Of a stretch of DNA of 64,000 bases, positions 25,325-48,998 are shown piece after piece. This stretch comes from a virus. Its lineage: Duplodnaviria > Heunggongvirae > Uroviricota > Caudoviricetes. Below the pieces are notes generated by a model, which saw only the letters and a program-made list of their open reading frames with translations, ran no database searches and was not told where the DNA came from. The stretch lies in IMG/VR virus record IMGVR_UViG_3300050821_010761, positions 104,808 through 168,807 of that record; one strand, written 5' to 3'. The position numbers and the translations under genes were made by a program. The number at the start of each line of letters is the position of its first letter. Positions within the stretch are counted from its first letter, which is position 1.

Positions 25325-26017
25325 TTAGTGGTATAAATTCGCTGCTGGTAGCAGCGCTCCATCCATATTCAAGACCATAGCAATATTACCACCACCGCTC
25401 TGTGCGTAATAAAGCTGAAACGTGTGAGTGATAGCCGACTCAAGAAGTTTGGTTCCATTAACAGTTGCAATGCCATGAGAACCATCGTTGTCCGCGACCA
25501 AAGCACCATCGATGTAAAGGAGTGAGCCGTCGTCGCTAGATGTGGAAAAATTGTAATAACCATCCTCAGTTACTACAAGTTGTCCAGTACAAACGATGCG
25601 GTAGTTGTTATTCAAAAACAGTGATGCAATCTCAGGGTTAATCAGGCTATTACCAGCGTTACCCGCTACGTTTGGTTGATTGATTACTGTAGACAATAGA
25701 TAAGAATAAGCATTACCCGTTAATACTATGGCTTGCGCTGCCGTGTATCCAGGACTACTGCTTGATAGATAGATGCCAGAGGCAATAGCCTGCACGGTAC
25801 AAAATAAACCTGGCGTCAACGGCGCTTCGCCTTGCGATTCGCGGTAAGCGTTCTCGGAATCTACAATCTGCTGAATAGCGGTAGGCTGTGGCGTGGTTGC
25901 AGCTGGACCTTGTGGGCCAGGTTTCCCTGGAACGCCCTGTTCTCCAGTCCCGCCAGTGTTTCCTTTAGCACATCCGATCAGTAACAATACAAGCGTAGCA
26001 AAAAAACAGTTTTTCAT
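25325..26017 (-). CDS. lipoprotein with collagen-like Gly-X-Y repeats and a PA14/GLEYA-like carbohydrate-binding domain
   Basis: Internal start with RBS GGAGAA gives MKNCFFATLVLLLIGC (lipobox). Followed by GEQGVPGKPGPQGP, then GYYNF...DDGSLLYIDGALVADNDGSHG...YYAQSGGG typical of PA14. Confidence 0.6.
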   Translation of the reverse strand: MKNCFFATLVLLLIGCAKGNTGGTGEQGVPGKPGPQGPAATTPQPTAIQQIVDSENAYRESQGEAPLTPGLFCTVQAIASGIYLSSSSPGYTAAQAIVLTGNAYSYLLSTVINQPNVAGNAGNSLINPEIASLFLNNNYRIVCTGQLVVTEDGYYNFSTSSDDGSLLYIDGALVADNDGSHGIATVNGTKLLESAITHTFQLYYAQSGGGNIAMVLNMDGALLPAANLYH

Positions 26018-26030
26018 AAAAATTCTCCAT

Positions 26031-26249
26031 TTAAGTTTTATCAACCCAGTCCCCATCTTCTTCTTTAAATCTCTCACGCCTCAGATGTCCTTCCGCGCAC
26101 TCAACACAGGATAGACAGCCCTCGACTTCGTACAGGTTTGGCGCATTTGACGTACCACAGTTTACACATACCAATCCTTTACAGTCGTCGTTGTTTACCT
26201 CCACGATAGAAAGTTTCTTCGGTCGAAATAGTTTTTCTAGCAGGTCCAT
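26031..26249 (-). CDS. zinc-ribbon protein (72 aa)
   Basis: CVNCGTS...CLSCVEC. Confidence 0.35.
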   Translation of the reverse strand: MDLLEKLFRPKKLSIVEVNNDDCKGLVCVNCGTSNAPNLYEVEGCLSCVECAEGHLRRERFKEEDGDWVDKT

Positions 26250-26445
26250 AATTTCCTACCATCCTACGTATTGAATATATTACAACCTCATCTGTCTTGT
26301 CAACGGCAATCGGTAATTTTTTCATACCGATTCTGGTCCCGTCTTTGTATACATCCATACGTGTGTACAAAGAAAAGTCCCAGAACATGTACGAGTATAG
26401 GACGCCATCAACTTCAATAGTGGTCAATTTAGGATTTTCGAGCAT
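26179..26445 (-). CDS. hypothetical protein (89 aa)
   Basis: Internal start MLENPKL with RBS GAAAGG preferred. The longer ORF (to 26712) would overlap the rIIB-like gene by 280 nt. Confidence 0.35.
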   Translation of the reverse strand: MLENPKLTTIEVDGVLYSYMFWDFSLYTRMDVYKDGTRIGMKKLPIAVDKTDEVVIYSIRRMVGNYGPARKTISTEETFYRGGKQRRL

Positions 26446-27427
26446 TCTTATTGCCTTTCTTCTTTTTCCTGGCGATGAATTTGCCATCTGGTCCCCGCAC
26501 CGCGTGATTGTTAGCATAGCGCTTTTTAAATGCCCGTTCAATGACCTTGGTTTCTTCGACTTCCTCTGCTTCGAAATCGTGGTAGTATGGCTCAAGAGAG
26601 CGTTCATATGCATCGTCGTTTTCGTGGTCGAAGTCATTGCTCGTAATGCTAAGCCATCCACATTCGTCACTCTCTTCCCCAGCTTTCGCAAATTCATGAT
26701 TGGCATCGTCATCCAATGGCTTTACATCGCCGAATACCACGCCGTCCAGCATGTCTGTAGTTTCTTTGATCACCTCGAAACGACATACGCGCATCTTTTG
26801 ACCGTTGTAGTCGTTTGGCACTGCCACCACGTCCTTGGGATTTACTTTTACTAATACAAGCTTGGGACCAAATTCTTTGGCGTATTGATATCCACCGACG
26901 TGCAAGCCGTAGGAGCATGTATTGTCTGGATTGTCGTCGACCTGTTCACGCGGAATCTCACAGATTTTACCTGGACTATTGTCAAATTTACCAGTGTGTT
27001 TATCCTTGAAATCTTCGGTAACACCGCGATAGCCGATAAAGCATCCGTCCTCTGTCAAGCTGTGACCTTTGTTTTCGAGGAAGCGAAATAATTGTTTTCG
27101 AGAATTGAATGAGGGATTTTTTCTGAGGTTTTCCCAGAATGACAACAAAGAAGTGATGGGCAGATTCTCTTCTTTGTAAGCCATGATGCGATCCGATAAT
27201 TCAATTGGCATTTCTTCGTTGCCAAGTTTCAAGATGCCGTCTTGGAGTTCGAGTCCTTGTTTCTGAAAGAATGCTTCATTATCTGCAATCGAAGGGATTG
27301 CGGATAAACGATTTTCTCTAATCGCACTTAGCACTTTCTCAAATCGCCCATCCCCACTGGCAATAACTTTCGTTTTACCATCGTAATGCAGTGTCACAGA
27401 TCCTTTTGTCAGCATGAACGTTACCAT
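26429..27427 (-). CDS. rIIB: rIIB-like protein
   Basis: 332 aa, immediately downstream of and co-oriented with a 707-aa GHKL-ATPase gene (rIIA-rIIB architecture). Segment FDNSPGK...GLHVGG...VKVNPKDVVAVPNDYNGQKMRVCRFEV resembles conserved rIIB blocks as I recall them. Confidence 0.5.
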   Translation of the reverse strand: MVTFMLTKGSVTLHYDGKTKVIASGDGRFEKVLSAIRENRLSAIPSIADNEAFFQKQGLELQDGILKLGNEEMPIELSDRIMAYKEENLPITSLLSFWENLRKNPSFNSRKQLFRFLENKGHSLTEDGCFIGYRGVTEDFKDKHTGKFDNSPGKICEIPREQVDDNPDNTCSYGLHVGGYQYAKEFGPKLVLVKVNPKDVVAVPNDYNGQKMRVCRFEVIKETTDMLDGVVFGDVKPLDDDANHEFAKAGEESDECGWLSITSNDFDHENDDAYERSLEPYYHDFEAEEVEETKVIERAFKKRYANNHAVRGPDGKFIARKKKKGNKNARKS

Positions 27428-27430
27428 AAA

Positions 27431-29554
27431 TCACTTTCCTTTCACTTTCTTGTTAATATACCAAATCAATTCGTCAACTTGTTCCGTTGAAACCCGCCAC
27501 TCGCCACCATTTTCAACTGCCTTAACTAAAAGATACTTGTTTTCCAGCAGGTTTGTCAATTTTTCATCGTCTGACACAAATTGAGCCAAATCATCTTTGC
27601 ACCATTCCACTATGGCAGCGGGAACTGAGATGCTGAGCCTGGTTATCAAGGGTTTATACTCTACCATCATATGAGCTACATGGGCATCTTTTACTTCTTG
27701 TTTTGAGCGACGTAATAGACTCATATACTTAATATTCTTGGATTTTATGAATTTCATATCCAGCAATAATTCATTGGATGCTTTGAAATTTTTCTTGTAT
27801 TCCAAGAATGAAACAAACTTCTTTGATCCTTGCACCATTTTGATAGAATCATCGGTTAATGCGCACGGGATTATTTTCATTCCATCCAGATATTTGGAAA
27901 TACCTTGCAACATGGCCGCGTATTTCTCGTATTCTGCAAAAGAAACATACAAATAAGTCTGTGACTCCTGTTCTACAGCCTGAATAGTAGTCGTGTTGGG
28001 CGATTTTCCGCTATTGTGAACTTCGTGAATAGTAAACATCTCCTTGGTGCGGTCACGTTTAGCTTTTGGCACGCGAACGACTGGAGTGTAGGAAAGACAA
28101 GATAAACCCGTAGCATTGAAATCCTTGATAACTTTTGTTAAGGTTTTTTTGCTATCTGCCAAACTTGTTTTGATGACCATTTTTGGCATTGCTGGAGTGC
28201 TGCCAGGACTAGGAGTTGGATCTTTTTGATACGTTTCTTTTGCGCTAATAAGGATAATACTTGCTAAATTTGATTTCTCTAAATATTCGCGCAGTCTTCT
28301 ATTTTGTGTGACTACGGGCTCAGTAACATCCAACCAAAATACGTGGTCTACTGAATCCAAGCCAATGAATTGATAATTGGTTCCACGTTCCAATACCATA
28401 TTACCAGAGCGACGTTTTCTTTTGATGCATACGTGTTCTATTTCGATTTCGCTAAACTTAGGATGCTCAATCCCTCCGCGATTTACCCGATAATCATTGA
28501 ATTTAGAATATTCTTCGATATTAGCTAGTTTAGAGAGGGTTTTAAATGATTTAATCCATTCTGCATTTGTTTTCGCTGATTTGAAGGTATTTTTCACATG
28601 CTCAGCCAATGCATCTGTAGCATTTTTTGCCAATGTTGCAAGAGCCTTAGTTGTAATACCACCGCTATCGTTTGAAACCCTCTCGCGATCGGCACCAACT
28701 TCTACAATACCATTACCGATGTGAAAAATCGCTTTTCCGTTCAATTTACCTAGTAATTCTTCCAATGCAGGAATTTTCTCTACTAAATCGCGGTTGACCT
28801 CATAAGGTATGCCGTCGATTGCCAACACGCAGGTGTCATCGTATTGATGGATACCGATGAAATCTGGTAATGAAAATTCGTTGATTTCAAATTCTTTACC
28901 AAACATCTGGCCGACGTTATGCCATTGTTTAACGACGTTTTGATTGAGCCCACGAAATTCTGGTTTCTCTTTTTCGTTCCAAAAATAGGAAGCACGAAAA
29001 ATCGATTTTCTGAATTCTGAGCAATCCTGCGGATTTATTGCTATTTGAATTTCAGTACCAGCTTGTTCGTCTGTATTTACTTCACTTAGTAAATCACATC
29101 GTCCTTCCTTGTTAGCGCCGATATGGGCTACATACGTACGTTTAACTCCGCCAGTGATCGAAACAATTGTAAAGGAATCTGTGTACGCCCATGCTGACTT
29201 GGCACCGATACCAAATCCACCAGTTTGTCCATTGGTCTTGCGTTTGGTGGACGATCCATATTTGCAGAATACGTTAGCCATACGATCTGGCGTGATACCT
29301 GGACCGAAGTCGCGAACCTTAAAGACGGGACTTAATTCATTTGGGACGCTAACAATTATGCTTTGTTTAGTGTTTTTCTCCCTATGAGAATCTCTCGCAT
29401 TACACATGTATTCCTGGATTAGTGTGCGGACCTTGTGCTGGTACAGTCTATTGCGCAAAATATCAATAATTACCGAAGCATCGCCAATGGTGAAATCTTG
29501 TGAAACAACTTGAGCATTCGTTTCAAGTGCATTGTCGTAAGCATTGAGTTTCAT
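27431..29554 (-). CDS. rIIA: rIIA-like protein with N-terminal GHKL (Hsp90/MORC-type) ATPase domain
   Basis: N-box LIQEYMCNARDS, G1 box DFGPGIT, G2 box GQTGGFGIGAKSAW. 707 aa is close to T4 rIIA (725 aa), which has a HATPase_c N-domain. Followed by the rIIB-like gene. Confidence 0.55.
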   Translation of the reverse strand: MKLNAYDNALETNAQVVSQDFTIGDASVIIDILRNRLYQHKVRTLIQEYMCNARDSHREKNTKQSIIVSVPNELSPVFKVRDFGPGITPDRMANVFCKYGSSTKRKTNGQTGGFGIGAKSAWAYTDSFTIVSITGGVKRTYVAHIGANKEGRCDLLSEVNTDEQAGTEIQIAINPQDCSEFRKSIFRASYFWNEKEKPEFRGLNQNVVKQWHNVGQMFGKEFEINEFSLPDFIGIHQYDDTCVLAIDGIPYEVNRDLVEKIPALEELLGKLNGKAIFHIGNGIVEVGADRERVSNDSGGITTKALATLAKNATDALAEHVKNTFKSAKTNAEWIKSFKTLSKLANIEEYSKFNDYRVNRGGIEHPKFSEIEIEHVCIKRKRRSGNMVLERGTNYQFIGLDSVDHVFWLDVTEPVVTQNRRLREYLEKSNLASIILISAKETYQKDPTPSPGSTPAMPKMVIKTSLADSKKTLTKVIKDFNATGLSCLSYTPVVRVPKAKRDRTKEMFTIHEVHNSGKSPNTTTIQAVEQESQTYLYVSFAEYEKYAAMLQGISKYLDGMKIIPCALTDDSIKMVQGSKKFVSFLEYKKNFKASNELLLDMKFIKSKNIKYMSLLRRSKQEVKDAHVAHMMVEYKPLITRLSISVPAAIVEWCKDDLAQFVSDDEKLTNLLENKYLLVKAVENGGEWRVSTEQVDELIWYINKKVKGK

Positions 29555-29915: not shown

Positions 29916-30192
29916 TTTCCCAATCCCATTCGCCTTCGTAGACTAATTCCTCAACTATTCCATCTATTTCCGACTCTTCATCGTCCGTTAGCGTCTCCTC
30001 TGTATCAATAACATACGAATGGCTATCAATGAGCCAACGTCCAACACCACGACCGCCATCTCCATCAGCACCATAGTGAGAATCGTATATACCCTCTACT
30101 TCGATATCCACTGTTACCGTTTTGCCAGACAATAACTCTATCTCACGTTCTCTGTGAATGTTAGCCATGTTATACTCCCGACAATCGAGCAA
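29869..30192 (-). CDS. acidic hypothetical protein (107 aa)
   Basis: D/E-rich. Packed array. Confidence 0.35.
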   Translation of the reverse strand: MLDCREYNMANIHREREIELLSGKTVTVDIEVEGIYDSHYGADGDGGRGVGRWLIDSHSYVIDTEETLTDDEESEIDGIVEELVYEGEWDWESAANDEANEYDEDLF

Positions 30193-30475
30193 TAGTCTGT
30201 ATGCCGTTTACGTACTTTATCAGGCCACCAGCTCGCAGTATATCCATTAAGGTGCTAGTATCAATAGTGCCTTCCTCAGTCTCGACCAGTGCGCCCAGGA
30301 GCGTTGTAGCCGTAATATCTAATTTTGATACATTATCTAGTACTTGGACAGTACGTCCAGCTGCAATTTCTTCCACAATCTTTTTAAGAGTGGTATAAGT
30401 ACTTGTTTCACAATCATACAGTTTGACATCCACGTATCGGCGAATAATTTTAGTTTCAGTTTGAGTCGTTGTCAC
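30170..30475 (-). CDS. hypothetical protein (101 aa)
   Basis: Packed array. No recognisable motifs. Confidence 0.35.
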   Translation of the reverse strand: MTTTQTETKIIRRYVDVKLYDCETSTYTTLKKIVEEIAAGRTVQVLDNVSKLDITATTLLGALVETEEGTIDTSTLMDILRAGGLIKYVNGIQTIARLSGV

Positions 30476-32909: not shown

Positions 32910-32918
32910 AGTTCAACC

Positions 32919-33179
32919 CTATCGTGTTATTGGATTTTTGTCAAAATTCTCAGAATGAGACAGTCTCATATTGAGAATCTCAGATTGATAATCTCGAATT
33001 GGGACTGGCTTGAATCTTGCATGCATCTCAGCTCGATACGTCTCACAATGAGACGTTGGCTCGTTTATTGCATATAGAACCAATTTCTTAATAAATTCAA
33101 TAGATTGCACGTTGGCATGATTCTCCATCGAAATATAATGGAATTGGTTGATTTTGATGCGTATTTTTTTGGACCGCAT
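32919..33179 (-). CDS. hypothetical protein (86 aa)
   Basis: RBS AGGAG plus ATG (MRSKK). Coding sequence carries two perfect GAGAC-type palindromes. Confidence 0.4.
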   Translation of the reverse strand: MRSKKIRIKINQFHYISMENHANVQSIEFIKKLVLYAINEPTSHCETYRAEMHARFKPVPIRDYQSEILNMRLSHSENFDKNPITR

Positions 33180-33346
33180 TTTCTTTGCCTCACTCCTAGA
33201 ATATCCTGCTTGACGCTCTAATCGCCCCGCCATTGCACGCATGCCAAGTGACGCGATGCAGCATATGCGACCCGCAAACCCTCAAACCGTCCCATTTTGA
33301 GACAAATTTCGCCTCAATACAATGCCTTAGTCACGCCGCGCGACGC

Positions 33347-33595
33347 TTAGCCTTGGTTAGCGCCACGTGGCAGTGTCACTGGACACTGGTGTTTGGTTAC
33401 ATCAAGGCATGCATCGGTCAAGGTCCCGTTTGGCCTAACCAATTCAATGAGACCACTTAGGACCGATACGCCTAGCCCACCGTCTAATAACGTCTCGACT
33501 AAGTAAACTTGTCCGCGTTGCAACGTGCCCGTCTCGGTCTCGACGTCGCATAGTGCCTTGACAAAATCACCACGTCTCAATATGAGATTCTCCAT
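33347..33595 (-). CDS. hypothetical protein (83 aa)
   Basis: RBS GGAAGGAAACGT-ATG (MENLIL). A palindrome overlaps the start codon region. Confidence 0.4.
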   Translation of the reverse strand: MENLILRRGDFVKALCDVETETGTLQRGQVYLVETLLDGGLGVSVLSGLIELVRPNGTLTDACLDVTKHQCPVTLPRGANQG

Positions 33596-33658
33596 ACGTT
33601 TCCTTCCGTTTGGCATAATAATTGCATGCATTATTGCATATATGTAATTATTATGCAA

Positions 33659-33923
33659 TTGTTTTAATTCAATACAATCTCAATTCAATACACTAACCCA
33701 TTTCTGTCTCATTTTGAGACAACTAACCCATCTCCGTGTTACTCCAAAACAATGTCTCAATTCGAGATTAGCCTTAGCGTAGTAAAATAGTCCATCTCAA
33801 ATTGATCATTGGTCTGCAATTTCTGTGCCACCACTCTATACGTATCCCTTTGATACACGAATATTTGTCCTATCCTGAGACGCTCCCTCAAAATCAAACG
33901 TTTGATAAGTTTTACATGATTCA
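33659..33923. promoter_or_regulatory. operator-like regulatory region with perfect 17-bp palindrome TGTCTCATTTTGAGACA flanked by ACTAACCCA and AATTCAATACA direct repeats
   Basis: Palindrome at 33705-33721. Direct repeats at 33666-33692 and at 33692/33722. Intergenic region upstream of the 33347-33595 gene. Confidence 0.4.
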
Positions 33924-34844
33924 TCAATGCACTACCGTGCCAACGTCCCTAACAAAACCCGACGTGTCTCGCTTAGCAATGCCCTTGGCCTTGAGACCGA
34001 CGATCAATCCAACGGTCTCGCGAGCATCCAAAAAGCGAAAATCATGCTTGTCACCGTCAATCACCTTAAAACCCTGATAAGTCTCGGGCAATGCCGACGT
34101 CCTAAACACGGTCGCAACGTTGACGCCTAAATTCAGTGCCTTAAGGCAATCGTCCCAATTTGATTCACTGGCACTAAATGTGACATGATAGTTCGGTATC
34201 GAAACAATACGCTCTAAACGCTTGAATACTTTGGTATAATCGTAGAACGTCACGTTTGGATACAGTTCAAAAATGTTCTTGCCTGTATCACCGACCTTGA
34301 ATAACTCCCATGCCAAGTCCGAAGTCCCATTGAGTCTCACAATGACACGGTTGCTGGTCTTGGCACAGATTTTGCCTATTTCGCGACTCAAACGCGTCAA
34401 AAACGTCTGTCTAAATTTGAGAAAATATAGCGTTTTGCGAAGTCTTGGCATCTGGACACCGTCGAATAGCCCGCGTCCCGCACCGTTGAGGCATGCCGCG
34501 CGACACCCCGCCGATGCGTTAGGGCATATATTTACACCGCTAAGGTCGGATGGACTAAGGTGCAAAATCCAATTCGAGACGTCGCCTAACCCCGCGTCCT
34601 TAGCCGTTTTTGGATTGATCATGCCGTTAGACAGGATTGACACCTTAGTTAGACGCTGTTCCAAAGCAAGACGATCGTTTTGACTCAACTCTTCGAAATT
34701 GATCAGGTCCCAAAGGTCTGTCTCAAGTGGAGACAACTCCTGTTTGGCACGAATTTTGCTTTGCAATTGGTCTTTAACTTGTCTCAATAAGAAACCCTTA
34801 CCCGCATCTGTCCCAGTATGGAGCGATTGAATGATTTGTTTCAT
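33924..34844 (-). CDS. Cys-motif protein, possibly phage Gp37/Gp68 (DUF5131)-like
   Basis: Start at MKQ with RBS AAGGAATCAAA-ATG. Cys-x6-Cys-x3-Cys cluster (NICPNASAGCRAAC). 307 aa. Confidence 0.4.
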   Translation of the reverse strand: MKQIIQSLHTGTDAGKGFLLRQVKDQLQSKIRAKQELSPLETDLWDLINFEELSQNDRLALEQRLTKVSILSNGMINPKTAKDAGLGDVSNWILHLSPSDLSGVNICPNASAGCRAACLNGAGRGLFDGVQMPRLRKTLYFLKFRQTFLTRLSREIGKICAKTSNRVIVRLNGTSDLAWELFKVGDTGKNIFELYPNVTFYDYTKVFKRLERIVSIPNYHVTFSASESNWDDCLKALNLGVNVATVFRTSALPETYQGFKVIDGDKHDFRFLDARETVGLIVGLKAKGIAKRDTSGFVRDVGTVVH

Positions 34845-35038
34845 TTTGATTCCTTTAGTTCTGCATTCCATCTCATTATAAGACTGTCTATTTTCCTTAT
34901 CAATCTGGGACACTGGTCTACGTTGTCTCGAAACAATGCATTTCGTAGACGCTCCAAGTCTCGCTTCGAGAACTCCACTTGGTCTTGAAACGAGCCGTCT
35001 ACATTCAAGACGGCATCGAGTACTATTTTTGGTCTCAT
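34841..35038 (-). CDS. hypothetical protein (65 aa)
   Basis: GGGGTTATCAAA-ATGAGAC start context. ATGA overlap with the downstream gene. Confidence 0.35.
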   Translation of the reverse strand: MRPKIVLDAVLNVDGSFQDQVEFSKRDLERLRNALFRDNVDQCPRLIRKIDSLIMRWNAELKESK

Positions 35039-35062
35039 TTTGATAACCCCTTTTATCTCGTT

Positions 35063-35377
35063 TTAATTCAAACCCTGTTCGAAATCCCATAATGATACTT
35101 CGTGTGTATCACCCTCAGTCTGCTGGCATGACTCACAATGATCCAAGCAATCGTCTCCAAATGAGACAACTTGAATTTCATCCAAGCAATGCGAACAAAC
35201 TCTAACCGTCTCAATTTGAGGCTGACTCACACTGAGACTAAGTTTGCCCCAAACCAAATGCCTATAAAACCCTTGATGAGACCTATAGGTTGGTCGGTGT
35301 ATCTTAAAGTGAGTCCAGTCCCACCGTGCTGTCAAGCCAATCTCAATATAATACGCGAAAAACCAAAAGCGTTTCAT
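35063..35377 (-). CDS. Cys-rich hypothetical protein (104 aa)
   Basis: RBS GAGGAG. CSHCLDE...CLDHCESC. Confidence 0.4.
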   Translation of the reverse strand: MKRFWFFAYYIEIGLTARWDWTHFKIHRPTYRSHQGFYRHLVWGKLSLSVSQPQIETVRVCSHCLDEIQVVSFGDDCLDHCESCQQTEGDTHEVSLWDFEQGLN

Positions 35378-35378
35378 T

Positions 35379-35585
35379 TTAATACTCCTCGTTTGAGTCG
35401 TCGGACCGTATCTCAGCTAAGTGTATCTCGAACAGGTCTCGTCCGTACAGTGCAATATACGCGGTTGCGTATATTTGAGACAAAGGATCATTGGTCTCAT
35501 CCAATACGTATTGAAAGAAGTCGTCTCCTTCTGAGTCAATTATGTATTGAGCACACTCTAGTAAATTTGGTAAATCATGTCTCAT
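35379..35585 (-). CDS. acidic hypothetical protein (68 aa)
   Basis: ATGAGAC start with GGGTGG RBS. Confidence 0.35.
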   Translation of the reverse strand: MRHDLPNLLECAQYIIDSEGDDFFQYVLDETNDPLSQIYATAYIALYGRDLFEIHLAEIRSDDSNEEY

Positions 35586-35586
35586 T

Positions 35587-36051
35587 TTAAGCCACCCGTG
35601 CCCGTTCTTTAATTGTTAGAGGGATGCGTAGCGTTTTGAGGCCAAGGATTTTTTGTGCCAAAATGAGACCGTCAGCCCATTCTGAGACAAAACCATCGGA
35701 CTTGACCTCAATTGAATCACCTAGATAGTGTTTCAAAATGATCAGACATGCGGTCACGACTGTATCATATGGATACTGTCTAGTTTTGCAAAAACTAAAT
35801 GTCTCATTCTCGGACAAGTGTTCACGCATAATGAAGTCTTCGCATTGACCGACGCGTGCCGAACCATTGACCTTGAGACCGCCATATTGAAACGTCTTAT
35901 CGTGGGCCGTGTAACCAGATAAGCCACCAAATGTCTCAGAATAATATCGTACCACTTTGGCACATTTGCGAATCGCAATTTGATACTTCTTCTCCATTTG
36001 AGACGTTTTGCCTCTATTCGAAGTAAACGACCAGTAGTGAGTGTGTCCCAT
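35587..36051 (-). CDS. hypothetical protein (154 aa)
   Basis: AAAGGGGTTCAAAA-ATG start context. Confidence 0.4.
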   Translation of the reverse strand: MGHTHYWSFTSNRGKTSQMEKKYQIAIRKCAKVVRYYSETFGGLSGYTAHDKTFQYGGLKVNGSARVGQCEDFIMREHLSENETFSFCKTRQYPYDTVVTACLIILKHYLGDSIEVKSDGFVSEWADGLILAQKILGLKTLRIPLTIKERARVA

Positions 36052-36143
36052 TTTTGAACCCCTTTGTTTTGGTCTCGCGACCTATATACATCCTATCGTC
36101 AATCCGTGACAAAACTTAAGTAAAAAATGCAATGCGTATCAAA

Positions 36144-36764
36144 TTAAGACGAACATAGACCGCCGATAAGCCAACGTGTCTCGCGTTGTTTTTTATTAGC
36201 CTTAGTCTGCAATGCATCGCGATGCTCGGTGATTTTGGTCTGGACGTCCTTAAGTTTTGCCCGCAACGCGTCTCGTTTTTTTGCGTCTGTTTTTGAGACA
36301 AAGCTACCGTCACAGACTGGACATTTGAGTGTTTTGGTCCTAAATCTGGTGTCAAGTCTAGACCGACACGTCGGGCAACTAACAAACTCAATTGACTTAA
36401 GTTTTTGGTCAATCGCGGTGGATAGGTCGCGTTCTAAGGCATTGAGTTTGTTTTGCAATTCAGTGGACGTCGCTAACAGTTTGGTTAGCTTAGCATCTGG
36501 CTCAAAACGATTCGTCTCTTTATAACGCACTGCAATGGCATTCTCCCATTTTTGGCACGTCTCAGAAAGATACTCGGACGCCTCGTGGTGGCTATTGAAT
36601 TCTTTAGAATGTTTAATTTCGAGACCACGGCACATATTGAGACGACCAGAATACGACTGTCCCGACTCATGGTCGCATTCGTCCTGATAGGCTTTAAAGC
36701 GTTTCTCAAGTTGAGACTCGGTCAACTTGCCGTCTAAATCTAACTCATCAAAACAAGCGCCCAC
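36144..36764 (-). CDS. zinc-ribbon-containing protein (206 aa, GTG start)
   Basis: AAAGGGGTTTTT-GTG start context. CPTCRSRLD...CPVCDG. Confidence 0.4.
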   Translation of the reverse strand: MGACFDELDLDGKLTESQLEKRFKAYQDECDHESGQSYSGRLNMCRGLEIKHSKEFNSHHEASEYLSETCQKWENAIAVRYKETNRFEPDAKLTKLLATSTELQNKLNALERDLSTAIDQKLKSIEFVSCPTCRSRLDTRFRTKTLKCPVCDGSFVSKTDAKKRDALRAKLKDVQTKITEHRDALQTKANKKQRETRWLIGGLCSS

Positions 36765-36836
36765 AAAAACCCCTTTGTTTTATTTTGGTACACCAAAAGA
36801 CTGCCCCATTATGAGGCAGCCCTAACTGTATCAAAA

Positions 36837-37640
36837 TTATGCAGTGAGTAGCTTAGTCGCCTCGTCCCAGATTGACGCATTAAGGTCAATCGACTTGACC
36901 GACTGTTCACTGATACGTCGAGCGGTACCGTTGCGGACCGTTGCAATGCCGTTTTGATCGGTGGTGGTGGTTTGATAGCGGATGCCAAAACGAATTGCAT
37001 TCTCTTGTATCACGTTGAGAACACTAAATAAATCCGATGCCTTATCGTCGGCACGTCTAACCCTAAGCAGGTCTTGTGCCTCAATTTTGGTCACATTCTC
37101 AGTTTGAGCCAAACGAATTTGAGCTACGTTTGTCGCTAATTGAGACAGTTCAATAGCACTAACTTGACGTGCCATCATGGAACGTACCATATTGGACAAC
37201 GCTTGACGTTGCGCGACTAGTTGAGGGATGAGTGTGTTCAATTCTGATACAGGATCACCTAAATGTTTCACTTTGACTGTCTCAAAATCCCTTACACCGA
37301 CAACTAGACCGTTCTTGCAAACCAAGCGATATAAGCCTAACATGCCAACTAGGGAGCCGTAGAGATGAGGGACCTTAAAGACGATACGGAAGTCTAGACC
37401 GTCAATGCCTAGACCGTTGTCGCGTGCCTGATAGACTGCAACGGTGTTTTGAAAATCGGCGCGGTCTGGATTGCGTGCCTTGCCCGTTTTGAGACCGATA
37501 AGGTCAAAACCGTGTCCATCCAAGACTTGAGCAATTTGAGATGGTTGGATCACTTTGAAACGTTCCGACTTATCGGCGTGCCGTTGGTCTTGAATGAAAC
37601 TAGTTGAGATGCTCGGTGCCGTGTTTTGATTATAACGCAT
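36837..37640 (-). CDS. DUF932/TIGR03299-like phage-plasmid protein
   Basis: Start MRYNQNTAPS with RBS AAAGGGGAATAT. Size and N-terminal pattern resemble the DUF932 family seen on plasmids, ICEs and phages. Confidence 0.45.
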   Translation of the reverse strand: MRYNQNTAPSISTSFIQDQRHADKSERFKVIQPSQIAQVLDGHGFDLIGLKTGKARNPDRADFQNTVAVYQARDNGLGIDGLDFRIVFKVPHLYGSLVGMLGLYRLVCKNGLVVGVRDFETVKVKHLGDPVSELNTLIPQLVAQRQALSNMVRSMMARQVSAIELSQLATNVAQIRLAQTENVTKIEAQDLLRVRRADDKASDLFSVLNVIQENAIRFGIRYQTTTTDQNGIATVRNGTARRISEQSVKSIDLNASIWDEATKLLTA

Positions 37641-37693
37641 ATATTCCCCTTTGTTTTGGCACTGCAACGTTGCCGTGCCTTATATACATCTTA

Positions 37694-37873
37694 TCGTCAC
37701 TTTCGCAAAATACTAAAGAACATTTTGCAAAATATTCAAATCGTCTCGAATTAATACGTTATGAGTGGCAAAACCGATAAGACTCATCCAAAACAGCGTT
37801 TGATTGCATTGGTCGAAATGTATGGATAAGTCCCAAATCACCTTGAGCAAAATTATATGTCTCATAATGATAC
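37694..37873 (-). CDS. hypothetical protein (59 aa, below ORF-track cutoff)
   Basis: GGAGTATCATT-ATGAGAC start context identical to its neighbours. Confidence 0.3.
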
Positions 37874-38059
37874 TCCAAACTCATTCGTTTTGATCTGTTT
37901 CAATTTAAGACGTAGCTCAATCTCAATGCGAGCCACGGCAGTCTCAATACAAGAGTGTATCCCGTCCCATTCAATGGTAAGCGTACCAAAACGAGACCCT
38001 TTGCTAACTACCTCAATGATTCTATAACCATAGCTACGTTGTCTTATAATGAAACGCAT
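37862..38059 (-). CDS. hypothetical protein (65 aa)
   Basis: GGGGTGCCTA-ATG start context. Confidence 0.3.
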   Translation of the reverse strand: MRFIIRQRSYGYRIIEVVSKGSRFGTLTIEWDGIHSCIETAVARIEIELRLKLKQIKTNEFGVSL

Positions 38060-38472
38060 TAGGCACCCCGCTGTAAAATGATCTGAATAGCACCGTTAGT
38101 AAACCCGAGACGTTTTGCCTGATCAAGGGAAATCTCAAAATGAAACGTCACCGTCTTAAAACCACGCTTAGCACGGTCCCTCAAACCACCGACACTAGGG
38201 ACGCCGCCTAAGCCAAACCGTCCATATAACCAGTTCTTGCAGTCAATCACCACGCCGTCGAAATAACCGTGTCGTTTCAATAGTTTGGCATCAAGTTTTA
38301 CCTCAACTAGTAACTCAATGACGTCGGCGCCGATATAGTTTTGTCTCAAAACCGCGACCTTAGCTTGATCAAATAAAGAGCCCGTCTCGTTTGGTCCAAC
38401 CAGTCTCAATTTGGCACGTGGTATACCATCGCCCAAACCCTCGCCCTGTATCAGTGTCAATAGATGTCTCAT
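38059..38472 (-). CDS. hypothetical protein (137 aa)
   Basis: Start at MRHLL with GGGGGTTATT-ATGAGAC. Confidence 0.4.
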   Translation of the reverse strand: MRHLLTLIQGEGLGDGIPRAKLRLVGPNETGSLFDQAKVAVLRQNYIGADVIELLVEVKLDAKLLKRHGYFDGVVIDCKNWLYGRFGLGGVPSVGGLRDRAKRGFKTVTFHFEISLDQAKRLGFTNGAIQIILQRGA

Positions 38473-38536
38473 AATAACCCCCAAGTAATAGTTTGATACA
38501 CCAGCTAGCGTCCCAAAATGAGACGCTAAAGCTGTA

Positions 38537-38740
38537 TCAATTCAATTCGATCACTTCTGATACACTAAGGATTTTGCCCCAAATTGGAGCGTCGTCCCCG
38601 ATCTCAGCACCGACCATCTCATAATAGATCACTTTGGCTTCGCAAATAGCTAACTCAATCGTTTTTGCCTCAACCTGATACGTTTTGGTGTGGTGGTTAG
38701 CCATGCGTCCTAGACCTAGAGTAACTGAAAATTGTCTCAT
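38537..38740 (-). CDS. hypothetical protein (67 aa)
   Basis: GGGAGTATCATT-ATGAGAC start context. Confidence 0.35.
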   Translation of the reverse strand: MRQFSVTLGLGRMANHHTKTYQVEAKTIELAICEAKVIYYEMVGAEIGDDAPIWGKILSVSEVIELN

Positions 38741-38763
38741 AATGATACTCCCTTGTAAATGTT

Positions 38764-38988
38764 TCATTCGTGTTTCATTTTAATAACAGATAAGGCGGAC
38801 CGCCATTTAGGCAGACACTCGTCAAAACGCTCGAAAATGGCATCGCTCGGTGTTTCAAGTCCTAACTCCATATAAAGTCCAGTCTGGTTCAATCGTCCCG
38901 ACTCAAGGGCCTCGAATGTCTCAATTATGGAATCTTCTTGCATACCGATCTGAAACATATAGTTGATCACTTGCATGAGTCTCAACAT
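38764..38988 (-). CDS. hypothetical protein (74 aa)
   Basis: AAGGAGTTTATT-ATG start. The shorter start avoids overlap with the lipoprotein ORF. Confidence 0.3.
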   Translation of the reverse strand: MLRLMQVINYMFQIGMQEDSIIETFEALESGRLNQTGLYMELGLETPSDAIFERFDECLPKWRSALSVIKMKHE

Positions 38989-39071
38989 AATAAACTCCTT
39001 GGTTTGGTCGAGACTTATTCCCGACTCATACCATCTTATCGGACGATCAAAACAAAACTTTAGTAAAATTT

Positions 39072-39221
39072 TCACTCCTCAAATAAAGAGCATTCGTGCA
39101 TATTTGATACAACCTGCATCATTTTGATACAGTCGTCATGCTTAGCCTGTTCTAAATCCGTGTCAACGGACGCGCAACCGACTAAGCTAAGTGAAAATAA
39201 TACAATAAAAATGTATCTCAT
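39072..39221 (-). CDS. mini-lipoprotein (49 aa)
   Basis: GAGGTATCATT-ATGAGAT start context. MRYIFIVLFSLSLVGC signal peptide with lipobox. Confidence 0.35.
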   Translation of the reverse strand: MRYIFIVLFSLSLVGCASVDTDLEQAKHDDCIKMMQVVSNMHECSLFEE

Positions 39222-39676
39222 AATGATACCTCACCCAAAATTGCCTCAAGTTCTCGAAATAATAGACTTTTTGCTACGTCTAACATTTTGCGTTCACCAA
39301 ACGACAGCTCTCTAAGACCGCGCCACGCCTCTAGGTCCGCGTAGACGTGAGCCATCTCAATTAGAGATCCCGTTTTGATACGCTCCATCAAGTCGCGGTA
39401 CCTCATATTCCAAGTCTGGTCTGAAACGTTTGGCTTAGGTCTATTTGCCTGTATTATTTGCAATGCCTTTATAGCGTCTTGTTTAGATGCCACGTGCCTC
39501 AAACCCAACTTCTCGGCACCGTTCATCGGTACCATAATAACCATGCCGCTGTCTTTAATTGAGACATTCAAAAATTTGTGCTTAGCACCAAGCATCTGTT
39601 TTGTCTCAATCGAGACGATCTGACCAACACCGTGTCCAGGATAGACGACGAACTGTTTCACTTTAAAGCGTTTCAT
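39218..39676 (-). CDS. CarD/CdnL-family RNA polymerase-binding transcription factor
   Basis: MKRFKVKQFVVYPGHGVGQIVSIE...VPMNGAEKLGLRH...MAHVYADLEAW...LSFGERKMLD matches the CarD_CdnL_TRCF pattern. AAAAGGGGTTATT-ATG start. Confidence 0.7.
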   Translation of the reverse strand: MKRFKVKQFVVYPGHGVGQIVSIETKQMLGAKHKFLNVSIKDSGMVIMVPMNGAEKLGLRHVASKQDAIKALQIIQANRPKPNVSDQTWNMRYRDLMERIKTGSLIEMAHVYADLEAWRGLRELSFGERKMLDVAKSLLFRELEAILGEVSL

Positions 39677-39861
39677 AATAACCCCTTTTCTTTTGCCTCA
39701 ATTTTATATACTTCGTTTGCGATCAATTCGAATATGGTCCAGCTATATCTAAGTGCCTCAGAACGAGAAACAGCTGGTTGGGTGGCACGGATTTTGCGTC
39801 CATCCCAGAATGTAACAGTTACAACGAATTGTTTCATTTCTAGACATCTTATCGTTAGCAT
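39673..39861 (-). CDS. hypothetical protein (62 aa)
   Basis: Start overlaps the stop of the upstream mini-ORF (ATATGCTAA). Confidence 0.3.
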   Translation of the reverse strand: MLTIRCLEMKQFVVTVTFWDGRKIRATQPAVSRSEALRYSWTIFELIANEVYKIEAKEKGLL

Positions 39862-40022
39862 ATAATAACCTCAATTGGAAAATTGCGGTATATCATTCGA
39901 GCGGTCTCTTCGAACATAGCGCCTAGAACCATGCCGTCAATAGTGTGAACCATATAAACAATGCGTCTCGATTTGAGATCAGTCCACCGTGGCGTCAATC
40001 GAATAGGATATAGGTGTCTCAT
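39855..40022 (-). CDS. hypothetical protein (55 aa, below ORF-track cutoff)
   Basis: AAAGGGGTTATA-ATGAGAC start context. Confidence 0.3.
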   Translation of the reverse strand: MRHLYPIRLTPRWTDLKSRRIVYMVHTIDGMVLGAMFEETARMIYRNFPIEVIIC

Positions 40023-40043
40023 TATAACCCCTTTGTAAACGTT

Positions 40044-40499
40044 TCAAAACATGACAGAATCACCGTTAGCTAAGAATGTCTCACGCGCCTCAATAGCCTT
40101 AATAACTTCTTCGTGTGTCTCACAATCAGTCGGACAGATATAGAACGTACCACCTGAGACGTATCCATATGAGAATTTTTGATCACCATAATAACGTAGC
40201 GTCCAATAGACCAAACCACTAACAGTCTCGCGTATCCATTCGATACAATAGAACTCATCCCCGAACGTCTTGGCATCAATAGCCTTGGTATCACCGTTGA
40301 ATAGCTTCATCTCATTTTGGCACGTTTCTAGTTCGTCTCGTTCTACCTCAAGGCTACATTCTAAGGACCTTATCTCGCGTTTGAGGTCTTCGATCTGTCT
40401 ATAGGTGTCGTCAACGCGGTTTTGCAAGTTAGCCTCAAGGGTTTGGAGTAACTCAAAATGATTCATCTGGTTATTTGGGAATACAGAAGTCCGTTTCAT
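40044..40499 (-). CDS. coiled-coil-containing hypothetical protein (151 aa), first gene of island operon
   Basis: AAGGGGTTTTGG-ATGAAAC start context. Preceded by a 1.1-kb non-coding leader. Confidence 0.4.
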   Translation of the reverse strand: MKRTSVFPNNQMNHFELLQTLEANLQNRVDDTYRQIEDLKREIRSLECSLEVERDELETCQNEMKLFNGDTKAIDAKTFGDEFYCIEWIRETVSGLVYWTLRYYGDQKFSYGYVSGGTFYICPTDCETHEEVIKAIEARETFLANGDSVMF

Positions 40500-41636
40500 C
40501 CAAAACCCCTTGGTTAGCGTTATACCATCTTATCGGTCGATCAAAACAAAACTCAAGTGAATTTTGAATTATTTTCACTGTATCATAATGAGTCAAGGCG
40601 TAGCCGACCAATGTCTTGCAATCTTTACACCGACAGTCCGTGGTTCTCTAGGATAACAACTTAGCATGCCATTGGAACGTCCTAACCCCGATAAGACAAG
40701 AATACGTCTATTTGGCATGTTAGGACACGTCTAGGCAAAACCGTCGCTTAGCGCTGTCAATAGTTGCGTCTCAATAGGAGACGAATAGGCTTGTGTCAGG
40801 CTGAGACACCAATTCAGCCATGAAGTCTCATAGTGAGACCTTTATACGCGCCTCACCCTCCCTTGGCGCCATTCTCGCCTAGTGTAAACGCACTGGGCAC
40901 TGTCTCGTCCTGAGATATCCTGACTAAACTATTGAAACAACTAAATAATTTCGTTATTGGACCAGTGTACTGTTGTTAGACTGAGCTAAGTGACACGGCG
41001 CCGATGACTGAGCTAGTGACTGTATCGGTGTGACACAACTAGTAGTGAGCCAAATTGAAACGTTTACATGTTACGGCACGATTCTTGCAAGGGGACATAG
41101 CTTAGTCTCGTTTTGATGCGGGTGGCTAAGGACTTGGACTAGTGGGATAGGTGTGTCATTTTGCTACGTCACTAAGCTATGTCTCAGTTTGGGACTGGGC
41201 ACGAATATTGCATCCCTGCAAGCGTCCATGCCAACGGTGTCTAAGGTATATACGTATCAGATGCGGCACTGTCATGAGTTTAGACAGCGTAAACATGCGA
41301 ATCCCCTAGGGAATCTCATATCGGGATATGGCATATGGATTGCACCCATGCCCTGAGCTACTTGCTCCCAGTGTTTTAACAAAAGTGTAAATTTTATAAA
41401 TACAACAAAAAAATTTCCAAAAACTGAATTAAATTTTTTCCGAGAAATTTTTACACAAAATCGCGTCACCACAGATGCATTGTATTGCTTCCAATGGCCT
41501 CTATACGCCCTCTAATGACTGCCCCATTATTGCCCACAATCACAGCCCATTTCTCACACAGCGCAGATGAGAACCTTTGGGACGTGCATCTAAACGGACG
41601 CTGGACAAACTATTGTAAACAGTGATATAATCCAAT
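40500..41636. promoter_or_regulatory. 1.1-kb non-coding divergent control region (candidate promoters, iteron-like repeats, possible ncRNA)
   Basis: No credible ORF. Repeats GACTGAGCTAAGTGAC (40981) and GACTGAGCTAGTGAC (41007), inverted copy GTCACTAAGCT (41170). 8-bp inverted repeat GTCCTAAC...GTTAGGAC at 40680-40730. AT-rich right-hand end. Confidence 0.5.
41602..41631 (+). promoter_or_regulatory. sigma70-like promoter with extended -10 (TGGACA-N18-TGaTATAAT)
   Basis: -10 element ends 5 nt before the ATG of the HNH gene, implying a leaderless or very short-leader transcript. Confidence 0.45.
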
Positions 41637-42380
41637 ATGGACAGCATTTTAAAAACATTTAAAAAAGGTTATAAATTTTGCAGTCAGTGTAAAATTGGAA
41701 AACCCTTCTCGGAATTTAAACCTCATAAAGTCGGTCCCTTTGGTTGGTATTCTAGGTGCCTAGCGTGTTCTACTAAGAAACAAAAAGAAGTATTACCCGT
41801 GGGATTTTGTCGATGCATCAAATGTAAAGAAATAAAAGAATTGACGACTAAACATTTTCAAAAGAGTAGCAGAGCGAAATCTGGATTTGACTCAAGATGT
41901 AAAATTTGCATAGTACAAATTCGTGCTGAATATGACACATCGTACAAGAGGGAATATGCAAAAGAATATAATCGTATCCACAAAAAGGAAAGAGCCGCCT
42001 ATATAGCAAAAAGACGAAAGGAAGACCCCGCCTTCAGAGCGCGAAGTAACGTTGGTCAATGGACCAGACAATTACTAAGGGCAAATAAGCTGAAATATTC
42101 AAAAATTATAGGTTGTACGCAGGGGCAATTCGTAAGACATTTAGAGAGTTTATTCGAACCAGGAATGACTTGGGAAAATTACGGAAACGGTCCTGGAAAA
42201 TGGCAAATTGATCACATTAAATCTTTAGCGTTAGCGATTCTTGAAGGAAGTGAAAGTTTTTCAAAAGCTTGCAATTATAAAAACTTACAACCATTGTGGC
42301 ACAGCGATCATGCAATAAAAACCGCGAAAGATGTTCTTTTGATCAGATCGTTTAAGGCACCTTTTAACGCACTGTCCTAA
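41637..42380 (+). CDS. HNH-family endonuclease with N-terminal Cys-rich region
   Basis: C-terminal WQIDHIKSLA...NLQPLWHSDH (His-Asn-His spacing). Multiple CxxC pairs at the N-terminus. No SD. Confidence 0.5.
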   Translation: MDSILKTFKKGYKFCSQCKIGKPFSEFKPHKVGPFGWYSRCLACSTKKQKEVLPVGFCRCIKCKEIKELTTKHFQKSSRAKSGFDSRCKICIVQIRAEYDTSYKREYAKEYNRIHKKERAAYIAKRRKEDPAFRARSNVGQWTRQLLRANKLKYSKIIGCTQGQFVRHLESLFEPGMTWENYGNGPGKWQIDHIKSLALAILEGSESFSKACNYKNLQPLWHSDHAIKTAKDVLLIRSFKAPFNALS

Positions 42381-48023: not shown

Positions 48024-48412
48024 ACTGGTTCGTCTTCGGGAAAATCGCGAAATTGAATGAACGGAGCCCAGTTAATTATGATTCTGACTGGATTTTTCTG
48101 AAATGGCGGCAAAAGGGTGTGGTTCCAGAATTCGATCCAGAATTGTCCAAACAAATCAACTGGTTGGAATGCTGTACCCTGTCTGAAATCGGGAAAATCC
48201 ACGTTGTAGCCCAAGTTTGTGTAATATTTATAAATATCATGGGGATTAACGTATCTTTGCGCAGTGGTACTTATCTCAGTTCTTCCCAGGGCTATAGCGG
48301 CTTGAATTTGCTTGTCAGCGTCAGCTATAAATAATGCGTTATCAGCTGCGACTAACGCTTCTTCAGTTGCTTTCTGGGCTGCCAAGGCGGCAGATGCTGG
48401 TATGGATGACAT
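48020..48412 (-). CDS. hypothetical protein (130 aa), lone - strand gene in + block
   Basis: Convergent with the upstream gene. Ala-rich N-terminus. Confidence 0.4.
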   Translation of the reverse strand: MSSIPASAALAAQKATEEALVAADNALFIADADKQIQAAIALGRTEISTTAQRYVNPHDIYKYYTNLGYNVDFPDFRQGTAFQPVDLFGQFWIEFWNHTLLPPFQKNPVRIIINWAPFIQFRDFPEDEPV

Positions 48413-48998
48413 ACTTATAAGATTGTTTCAAACCGTGATAATGAAGGATATGTTTAAGAAATCTGGCAACCCCAAAGTAGAAGAGCTTACCAAATCCCAC
48501 AGGGAGAGGTCTTACAATTTAAGTTCTCTAGGTGTCATTAAAAAGGTTTTGGAAGAGGGTCTAAAGCCAGCCAGATTTTGCGCTTGGTGTGCCGAAGGCA
48601 AACTGGCTCATGGCAATCAGAAATATTGCTCTACGGAGTGTTCAAGAAGTGCAATGGCTTGGAGCTACCCGCAAAAGGAAGAGAATTTAGCCCAGCTTCT
48701 CATAAGACAAAATTACAAGTGCAATGCGTGTCAGTTTGATTATACACCATTCATGGATGCCATCGCCGCCAAGGATAAGCCTCGCGGTTCTCTGCAGTGG
48801 GACTGGCGTAACGAATATATTTGGTATTTTTATAAAAGGCTTAAAAATCAGGTACCGCCAGAGCGTAAACCAGAAGTGGACCATGTAATCCCTATTTATA
48901 AGGGTGGTACCTCTTTGGGGATGGACAACCACTGCGTCCTATGTTATTCTTGCCATAAAGTAAAGACAGGAAAAGACCTGTCTGGAAAGCGTAAATAA
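48402..48998 (+). CDS. HNH endonuclease
   Basis: EVDHVIPIYKGG...NHCVLCYSCHKVKT canonical HNH motif with Cys4 zinc knuckle. Start approximate, since the longer ORF overlaps the - gene. Confidence 0.55.
   Translation: MDDILIRLFQTVIMKDMFKKSGNPKVEELTKSHRERSYNLSSLGVIKKVLEEGLKPARFCAWCAEGKLAHGNQKYCSTECSRSAMAWSYPQKEENLAQLLIRQNYKCNACQFDYTPFMDAIAAKDKPRGSLQWDWRNEYIWYFYKRLKNQVPPERKPEVDHVIPIYKGGTSLGMDNHCVLCYSCHKVKTGKDLSGKRK

Follow-up and report, generated by a model that had tools for sequence, protein, structure and literature searches.

The window analysed here is a 64,000-nucleotide stretch of the IMG/VR virus record IMGVR_UViG_3300050821_010761 (Caudoviricetes). It makes up the initial 64 kb of a metagenomic contig of 168,757 bp, recovered in at least two independent assemblies, from a roughly 169-kb uncultured myovirus. 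Between 33 and 41 kb of this window, a module of small genes is filled with copies of a 15-bp palindrome, GT(C/A)TCA-www-TGA(G/T)AC, which is the true unit behind a local enrichment of the pentamers GAGAC/GTCTC. We interpret this element as a hyperdense operator array for a dimeric, sequence-specific DNA-binding protein that would switch an early gene module as a block, and we assign this function a probability of about one half.

32954-41320, no strand assigned: palindrome array, 95 sites of at least 10 bits (position weight matrix scan, shuffles and k-mer contrast)

A 15-bp palindrome confined to one gene module

The island at 32.9-41.4 kb contains 87 GAGAC/GTCTC pentamers, compared to 46 in the remaining 55.5 kb of the window. 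Base composition predicts about 14 for the island, and the excess is stronger than claimed in the preliminary description, which had drawn attention to this word. Pentamer density was 10.25 per kb between 33 and 41 kb and 0.89 per kb elsewhere; in 1-kb bins, GAGAC plus GTCTC ranged from 6 to 16 per kb across 33-41 kb, with nearly all other bins at 0-2 per kb. When k-mers of the island were compared without bias against the remaining window, the GAGAC/GTCTC word came first at every k, and the hexamers TGAGAC/GTCTCA occurred 56 times in the island and 17 times elsewhere, a 21-fold difference.

When the pentamers were aligned on GAGAC, an inverted copy was found to be conserved 5 nt upstream, with each position of GTCTCA kept in 47-60% of cases and an A/T-rich centre of 3 nt between the two arms. 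The palindrome GTCTCA-N3-TGAGAC, first mentioned as a possible protein target, is thus the real unit. A symmetric 17-column position weight matrix, nGT(C/A)TCA-www-TGA(G/T)ACn, was refined on the island and used to scan the window. Of the 103 sites reaching at least 10 bits, 95 fall within the array, which makes up 13% of the window, and 8 lie outside; at a threshold of 14 bits, all sites of the window (38/38) are in the array. Dinucleotide-preserving shuffles of the island yielded 0.9 ± 1.0 sites, placing the observed 95 at about 100 times chance.

The edges of the array are sharp (first site at 32954, last at 41320). Neighbouring sites have a median spacing of 61 bp, overall about one site per 90 bp, and in five phages the centres of sites tend to lie 16 or 27 bp apart. 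A general hairpin richness of the island was considered and rejected: inverted repeats with arms other than GTCTC/GTATC are no commoner here than elsewhere, which argues for one specific word. Locus L136, a 21-kb sequence that overlaps the first 12 kb of the window and extends 8.8 kb beyond its start, contains one site.

The site is imposed on coding sequence

Most of the pentamers of the island (72/87) are located inside coding sequence, at a density of 10.5 per kb compared to 9.3 per kb in non-coding DNA, and they are present in all three reading frames and both orientations. For the complete palindrome, about 85-90% of sites are intragenic. Shuffling synonymous codons, with proteins and pooled codon usage kept fixed, gave 34 ± 4 pentamers in coding DNA, and shuffling the order of codons gave 15 ± 4, against 72 observed. 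As both values stay below the observed number, codon choice and residue order have both been bent to create sites; that codon usage is insufficient as an explanation had been stated before and is borne out by these shuffles.

The site also recurs at gene starts. At 9 of the 20 starts of the module, the centre of the palindrome lies exactly 1 nt 5' of the ATG, giving aTGAGAC or aTGAAAC in a fixed register, in line with the shared gene-start context noted in the preliminary description. Such sites often form ATGA stop/start overlaps. They may be a by-product or have a function of their own; the former is conceivable because the spacer between the Shine-Dalgarno (SD) sequence and the ATG, together with the second codon, offers cheap places for a site. 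The translation-initiation signature of the island, AAGGGG, is indeed distinct: GGGG precedes 9 of 19 island starts but only 1 of 70 starts elsewhere, where GGAG/AGGA dominate, and AAGGGGTT occurs six times in the island and nowhere else in the window.

Probable recognition as double-stranded DNA

In order to distinguish recognition of duplex DNA from recognition of RNA, we compared the partner arms of 196 plus 300 half-sites from five phages. Opposite the variant arms TGAGGC, TGAGAT, TGGGAC and TGAAAC, the partner stays GT(C/A)TCA and does not change to the complement; base pairing is therefore not kept by compensatory or wobble changes. Sense-strand G-U pairs account for 55% of transition mismatches (282 vs 232), within the 49-55% of the compositional background. 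The stronger half-site lies on the sense strand in some phages and on the antisense strand in others, with no consistent strand preference (TGAGAC to GTCTCA: 31 to 25 in the window, 8 to 29 in the related phage L063).

Folding energies of the nine start-codon sites range from 0 to -3.9 kcal/mol (z-scores -1.35 to +0.79), no better than those of shuffles; only the few perfect palindromes fold strongly (-8 to -10 kcal/mol). Rfam and tRNA scans of the window returned no match. Independent conservation of two half-sites at a fixed spacing is the pattern expected from a dimeric protein that reads the duplex, and mainly for this reason recognition as double-stranded DNA is favoured.

The array is shared by divergent phages and replaced by another word in one relative

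Megablast of the island and of a structural block against 50,697 phage records gave no match. Relatives were obtained via the rIIA-like protein (IMG/VR), an alignment of a 154-aa module protein (metagenomes) and exact-protein look-ups. Searches of IMG/VR with the GP88, DUF932, 154-aa, HNH-like 247-aa and HTH_8 proteins returned nothing, or distant and irrelevant loci only, and among genome contigs the 154-aa alignment found only 24-46% identical relatives in unrelated bacteria, which indicate no host. The genes that anchor this comparison are the following:

36837-37640, minus strand: DUF932 protein, module core gene (Pfam 4e-16; also in L055, L056, L063, L068, L159 and L161)
35587-36051, minus strand: 154-aa core protein, marker for finding relatives (9 sites in 465 nt)
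33924-34844, minus strand: GP88-family protein (PF17338), module core gene (Pfam 2e-41; PHROG 1617)
26429-29554, minus strand: rIIA-like (GHKL ATPase, 707 aa) and rIIB-like genes, conserved anchor downstream of the module

The same palindrome array was identified in six divergent metagenomic phages (L019, L055, L056, L063, L159 and L161), seven including the window. In these relatives the arrays lie in the DUF932/GP88/154-aa module upstream of the rIIA/rIIB-like genes, and the rIIA/rIIB-like anchor follows the module in all relatives with that side visible. Five islands were compared for sites of at least 9 bits: L055 has about 7 per kb, and the other four reach 12-14 per kb. The proteins common to array phages are 27-76% identical and their gene order differs; comparing orthologues, some sites are shared and others lineage-specific, showing that individual sites turn over. 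In L056 the profile is a step (0-1, then 9-18, then 0-2 sites per kb): the array begins in a non-coding leader, downstream of genes in the same orientation, and ends at rIIA, so the domain is not a by-product of a strand switch.

A further relative, L068 (L068:1-6799, contig Ga0181531_10006654), provides an informative contrast. Its DUF932 and GP88 proteins are 60% and 68% identical to those of the window, closer than in most array-bearing relatives, but it contains no palindrome site. Two other words are frequent there instead: (C)GTCTA(A), which occurs in both orientations with a density of 8 per kb and has no dyad partner, and GTCAA (9 per kb). At one aligned position, for the residues V-R-L, the window uses GTG AGA CTC, which creates TGAGAC, and L068 uses GTG CGT CTA, which creates CGTCTA. 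Such close genes without the palindrome show that the motif is set by the resident genome and does not travel with the genes; this all but excludes a relic of transfer and points to a lineage-specific reader. Based on these comparisons, the array is maintained lineage by lineage and was not brought in by transfer.

The non-coding DNA of some relatives contains additional repeats. Clusters of CTTGAC(C)/TTGACC iterons were seen at L056:6370-6600, at L063:480-620 and 3240-3300, and in the L161 island, and the leader of L056 additionally contains three copies of GCTATCCGYTGA, an AT-rich stretch and a strong promoter (TTGACA-17-TATATA). These clusters could be an origin or control region. The leader repeats of the window differ from them.

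Architecture of the module

A non-coding leader of 0.9 kb heads the module, which comprises about 20 small genes in one orientation; every credible gene between 32.9 and 40.5 kb is on the minus strand, in line with the preliminary description. Its further features are:

40500-41400, minus strand: non-coding leader at the module head, about 900 bp (10 palindrome sites, long inverted repeats, no credible open reading frame)
40519-40557, minus strand: promoter cassette 1, extended -10 type (CTTGAGTTTTGTTTTGATCGACCGATAAGATGGTATAAC), read from the sequence and a four-cassette alignment
39026-39060, minus strand: promoter cassette 2, same basis
37679-37720, minus strand: promoter cassette 3, same basis
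36081-36120, minus strand: promoter cassette 4, same basis
39218-39676, minus strand: CarD/CdnL-type RNA-polymerase-binding protein, 152 aa (Pfam CarD_TRCF_RID and CarD_C)
36144-36764, minus strand: 206-aa protein with a coiled coil and a CxxC...CPVC ribbon, starting MGAC (zinc-ribbon matches below Pfam thresholds; alignment)

The four extended -10 promoter cassettes are near-identical, share the repeated motif GATAAGATGGTATAA and are accompanied by hairpins in the 5' untranslated region; a generic promoter scan gave 28 hits, not above the 22 ± 5 of shuffles. The leader could serve as a long 5' untranslated region, as a regulatory region or as an origin, and it may be a structured leader RNA. 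Its inverted repeats pair 41094-41111 with 41166-41183 and 41227-41244 with 41280-41297, and the interval 40500-41400 had no Rfam match.

With 43.9% GC compared to 41.0% in the rest of the window (1-kb bins 42-46%, 500-bp bins 39-49%), the island is the highest-GC 8.5-kb stretch of the window by a margin of less than 3 points, which contradicts the 47-52% against 35-42% reported from samples. With respect to gene content, the CarD, DUF932 and GP88-family assignments held, and the zinc-ribbon matches remained below Pfam thresholds. PHROGs assigned the island proteins only to 'unknown function'. The T4-like backbone of the preliminary description was likewise confirmed in part: rIIA/rIIB-like genes and a T4-type RNA ligase are present, but the tail sheath matches only that of Myxococcus phage Mx1 (42%) and no nucleotide match to deposited phages was found.

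CarD is accessory to the module, with no CarD domain recorded among the genes called in L159 and L161. The best named relative of the CarD protein, from a Bdellovibrionales metagenome-assembled genome (52% identical), gives a weak hint at the host (Bdellovibrionota). The 206-aa MGAC protein is present in relatives (L056:10566-11168, L068:5412-6017 and, with an MGSD start, L019:2856-3164) and is fast-evolving. In this family, a GYSGDFQTV block, the CxxC...CPVC ribbon and the termini are conserved, while the middle falls to about 30% identity; the relatives end in G-(L/W)-G-A-C, the copy in the window in GGLCSS. Judging from this architecture, the region is probably an early, variable, host-directed small-gene module. 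A gene class regulated separately through the GAGAC motif, one of the two options initially offered, fits all findings: the palindrome, the bending of codons and residues, the sharp edges and the module's own promoters and SD type.

Candidate binding proteins

Two small DNA-binding proteins encoded in the window are candidates for reading the palindrome:

30170-30475, minus strand: PhaR-type (PHB_acc_N) protein, 101 aa (Pfam PF07879)
52918-53124, plus strand: Fis/NtrC-type HTH_8 protein, 68 aa (Pfam HTH_8 2.4e-10, full model length)

We consider the PHB_acc_N protein the leading candidate. Its domain match is clear (E=3.8e-14, 52.9 bits against a cut-off of 25) and covers residues 10-68 of 101; the C-terminal region of PhaR that binds polyhydroxybutyrate granules is lacking and no second domain was reported. 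Cellular PhaR recognises CTGCNNNGCAG, a palindrome whose arms are also separated by 3 nt (PMC12542648); the inner part of the site described here is CTCA-NNN-TGAG. Unlike cellular PhaR, which has few operators at phasin promoters, the phage protein would face about 100 sites inside genes, and only the N-terminal domain was detected in its 101 residues.

In the window the PHB_acc_N gene belongs to the leftward run of the module and is found between the array and rIIA, a position it also has in L019, L159 and L161. The phage family is clade-restricted, with only 8 clusters among 5.8 billion proteins, and 2 of the 8 sites outside the array are in the PHB_acc_N gene itself. A site at the start of this gene, suggestive of autoregulation, exists in the window and in L159; L161 shares only an internal site near +150 and L019 has none. 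This autoregulatory site was considered weak and was not relied on. A PDB sequence search with the PHB_acc_N protein gave nothing useful.

The HTH_8 protein is the second candidate; it aligns weakly to Fis residues 54-95, and a PDB search returned only weak Fis/NtrC matches. Whichever protein is involved, the binder is most likely phage-encoded, since L068 uses a different motif despite its related core genes.

Comparison with known multi-site systems

In Cluster A mycobacteriophages such as L5 and Bxb1, stoperators provide many repressor sites in transcribed DNA that block elongation (PMC9283540, PMC6550527). The array shares this central property: there are 95 copies of one site in 8.4 kb of transcribed phage DNA, protein binding is suggested by the behaviour of the half-sites, and tens of sites spread through transcribed DNA would act on transcription units and not on single promoters. 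Stoperators are 13-bp asymmetric sites oriented with transcription, mostly located in short intergenic gaps; a 50-kb genome has about 24-36 of them, and their role is in prophage immunity. Asymmetry, fixed orientation and intergenic placement are all absent here: the site is palindromic, about 85% intragenic and about 50 times denser. The array is also confined to one 8.4-kb module, and there is no sign of lysogeny in the approximately 73 kb seen. Nevertheless, the stoperator system is the nearest known logic.

In the hyperplastic regions of T4-type phages, the promoter/stem-loop cassettes known as PeSLs lie between small variable early genes and are linked to reshuffling (PMC2839356, PMC4122927). 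The four GATAAGATGGTATAA cassettes of the module resemble them; whereas PeSLs are intergenic units of promoter and terminator, the array is a separate and much denser layer running through coding sequence. The repeats of T5 injection-stop signals, also compared as a precedent, are confined to an untranslated region.

Words imposed on coding DNA are known from cyanobacterial HIP1 (GCGATCGC) and from the uptake sequences of Neisseria and Haemophilus, which occur genome-wide at about one per 0.3-1 kb. Like these, the palindrome is a short word forced on coding DNA in all frames and far above chance, but it is restricted to 8.4 kb at one per 90 bp and rare elsewhere in the genome, with no even genome-wide spread (95/103 sites within the array).

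T4 RegB cuts GGAG in early SD sequences, and its motif marks early starts and is disfavoured in later genes. Similarly, the module has an SD type of its own, and the site sits in exact register at about half of its starts. RegB, however, recognises a single-stranded RNA tetramer at the SD sequence, and the present site is a DNA palindrome of 15 bp whose arms do not compensate each other and which mostly lies away from starts.

Finally, phi29 p6 is a small viral protein that coats kilobases of DNA at regular pitch and helps to switch off early promoters, reading bendability and nucleating at genome ends. The preferred 16- and 27-bp spacing may be compared with this pitch, but here a defined sequence is repeated. 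Our literature searches found no module-restricted, coding-embedded palindrome at such density, and those on TGAGAC palindromes, iterated phage palindromes and over-represented repeats of early regions gave no precedent. We regard the array as a putative multi-operator array.

Proposed mechanism

According to our proposal, a dimeric protein would occupy about 100 sites across the module, and the occupied array would cause the whole module to be handled as one unit. Most likely, the early genes would be shut off by block repression or by a roadblock as the binder accumulates. The PHB_acc_N protein, made from the same gene run just downstream, would supply the binder. It is possible, though we would rather bet against it, that the PhaR-type protein and the roughly 100 intragenic operators form a chromatin-like domain that switches a host-takeover module. 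Site and protein would then co-evolve, as in the GTCTCA and CGTCTA lineages, and each phage would control its own module only.

The distribution of the word outside the array was examined as well. Between 6 and 33 kb the pentamer is 4-fold depleted (9 vs 40 expected, P=4e-9). The tail and neighbouring genes at 6-17 kb have no GAGAC/GTCTC where 13-16 are expected, and the interval 17-32.9 kb has 9 compared to about 21-24 expected. No depletion is seen at 41-64 kb (28 vs 34). This suggests that sites are costly in later genes, a weak point of the argument.

Several observations weigh against the operator proposal. The flanks of relatives show no depletion (pentamer ratios 0.7-1.5), so the argument of a cost elsewhere rests on one genome, and for the full site the chance expectation is already about 1-2 per region, too low to gauge depletion. 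The start-codon register recurs in four phages (9/20, 9/14, 5/11 and 7/14 module starts) and would more naturally fit an action on mRNA or gene junctions. Repressing a handful of promoters would require far fewer than about 100 operators. L056 bears the array, but no PHB_acc_N gene was detected in the 20 kb of its sequence examined. Furthermore, the early timing is deduced from gene content and promoter type, and the window together with the L136 extension covers about 73 kb of the approximately 169-kb genome.

Alternative explanations

The motif could act at the RNA level, with early mRNAs carrying a target of an endoribonuclease or a translational repressor, in a RegB-like manner, and later genes avoiding it. 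The start-codon register in all four phages fits this idea, as do the single coding strand of the module, by which every site is transcribed, its own SD type, the depletion at 6-33 kb and the few perfect sites that fold strongly, some of them in terminator-like positions. We nevertheless consider it unlikely. The partner arms show no compensation, sense-strand G-U pairs do not exceed what composition predicts, the strand bias of half-sites flips between phages and the start-codon sites are no stabler than shuffles. Moreover, just about 10% of sites are at starts, and the non-coding leader is equally dense in sites.

Alternatively, a methyltransferase, nickase or restriction-type enzyme could read GTCTC/GAGAC, and the cluster would then act by its modification state or as a decoy. 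Models for such a function are the GATC cluster at oriC, read by SeqA, and the methylated hexamers of the P1 pac site. The core is a 5-6-bp word typical for such enzymes (GTCTC is the BsmAI/Alw26I site), the short non-palindromic (C)GTCTA of L068, at 8 per kb, resembles an enzyme specificity more than an operator, and the word is depleted in part of this genome. However, seven phages keep a palindrome of 15 bp whose degenerate arms stand at a fixed distance of 3 nt, which is atypical of a 5-bp asymmetric site, and no DNA methyltransferase or restriction domain was among the Pfam hits for the approximately 73 kb. The suggestion that GTCTC is a restriction target is not supported by the depletion, which is regional, limited to this phage and absent from the flanks of relatives, unlike restriction avoidance. 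Taken together, an enzymatic target has a low probability.

Short common palindromes at gene junctions and elsewhere might also promote the reshuffling of small genes among co-infecting relatives. The differing order of core genes, the four near-identical promoter cassettes and the construction of about half of the gene junctions on a site, often as ATGA overlaps, agree with such recombination joints, and PeSL-mediated shuffling is documented (PMC2839356, PMC4122927). Most sites (about 85-90%) are intragenic, though, where exchange would break genes; weak selection for evolvability cannot explain a 2-fold excess over synonymous shuffles or changes of residues, and the 16- and 27-bp spacing is left unexplained. 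A role as recombination joint is improbable.

A role in replication or segregation, with the leader as an iteron origin and the sites loading or handcuffing an initiator, partition or histone-like protein, has similarly long odds. The cumulative GC-skew minimum is at about 41 kb, beside the leader, which is non-coding over 0.8-0.9 kb; its versions in L056 and L063 contain iteron-like TTGACC, GCTATCCGYTGA and an AT-rich stretch, and the regular spacing of 16 and 27 bp suggests a multimeric complex. The skew switch, however, coincides with a change of coding strand, which is a sufficient explanation, and in L056 the upstream genes are co-oriented, so that the module is not bound to a divergence point. 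Known origins and centromeres are non-coding and shorter than 1 kb, not 8 kb of genes, and the iterons of relatives are words other than the palindrome.

The horizontally acquired cassette of the preliminary description, which would be a relic from a motif-rich donor not yet blended with its new genome, is largely refuted and very improbable: it could draw on the slightly higher GC, plasmid-type or integrative-element-type gene content such as DUF932 and the different SD type, but module, position and motif are kept in seven phages at 27-76% protein identity, where synonymous sites would be saturated and the density has still been preserved, the GC offset is below 3 points, L068 lacks the sites despite its close DUF932 and GP88 proteins, and the non-coding leader is as dense in sites as the genes.

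Other genes in the vicinity

Further genes were annotated around the module. An RNA-repair-like set at 19005-20337 and 56454-60507 comprises a Thg1-type tRNA-His guanylyltransferase, a SpoU methylase, a PNKP-like kinase/phosphatase, a T4-type RNA ligase and RlaP, and suggests a defence against tRNA-cleaving host systems. Three paralogous HAD_SAK_2 proteins starting with MK(V/I)(L/I)FLDFDGV are encoded at 51884-52435, 55912-56454 and 62682-63107. Just beyond position 1 of the window on the same contig, L136:5878-7746 lies among structural genes and encodes a protein of 622 aa that contains an mCpol (minimal CRISPR polymerase) domain.

A 247-aa protein adjoins the module (41637-42380); it has no Pfam match, and its C-terminal part is common to many unrelated phages, which looks like the pattern of a mobile nuclease. 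A separate 228-aa HNH endonuclease is encoded at 48312-48998. The remaining assignments are a 605-aa SPFH/Band_7 protein (49180-50997), a peptide deformylase (61375-61857) and a PA14-domain protein downstream of rIIB (25325-26077), the last conserved in L159 and L161.

Implications

If the array is an operator field, this phage rewrites codons, and even residues, over some twenty genes for the sake of one site per 90 bp, which would imply strong selection for handling an early module, probably one for host takeover, as one regulatory unit. The stoperator idea would thereby be extended to a denser, coding-embedded and module-restricted form, and a tiny DNA-binding protein would be paired with a defined 15-bp site, a combination that is directly testable. 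The lineage-specific change of motif between related phages represents a natural experiment on the co-evolution of regulator and site. In uncultured phages, where homology is silent, k-mer islands could flag early or anti-host modules. A chromatin-like domain, if true, would add a new level of gene control in phages and might also contribute to exclusion between them.

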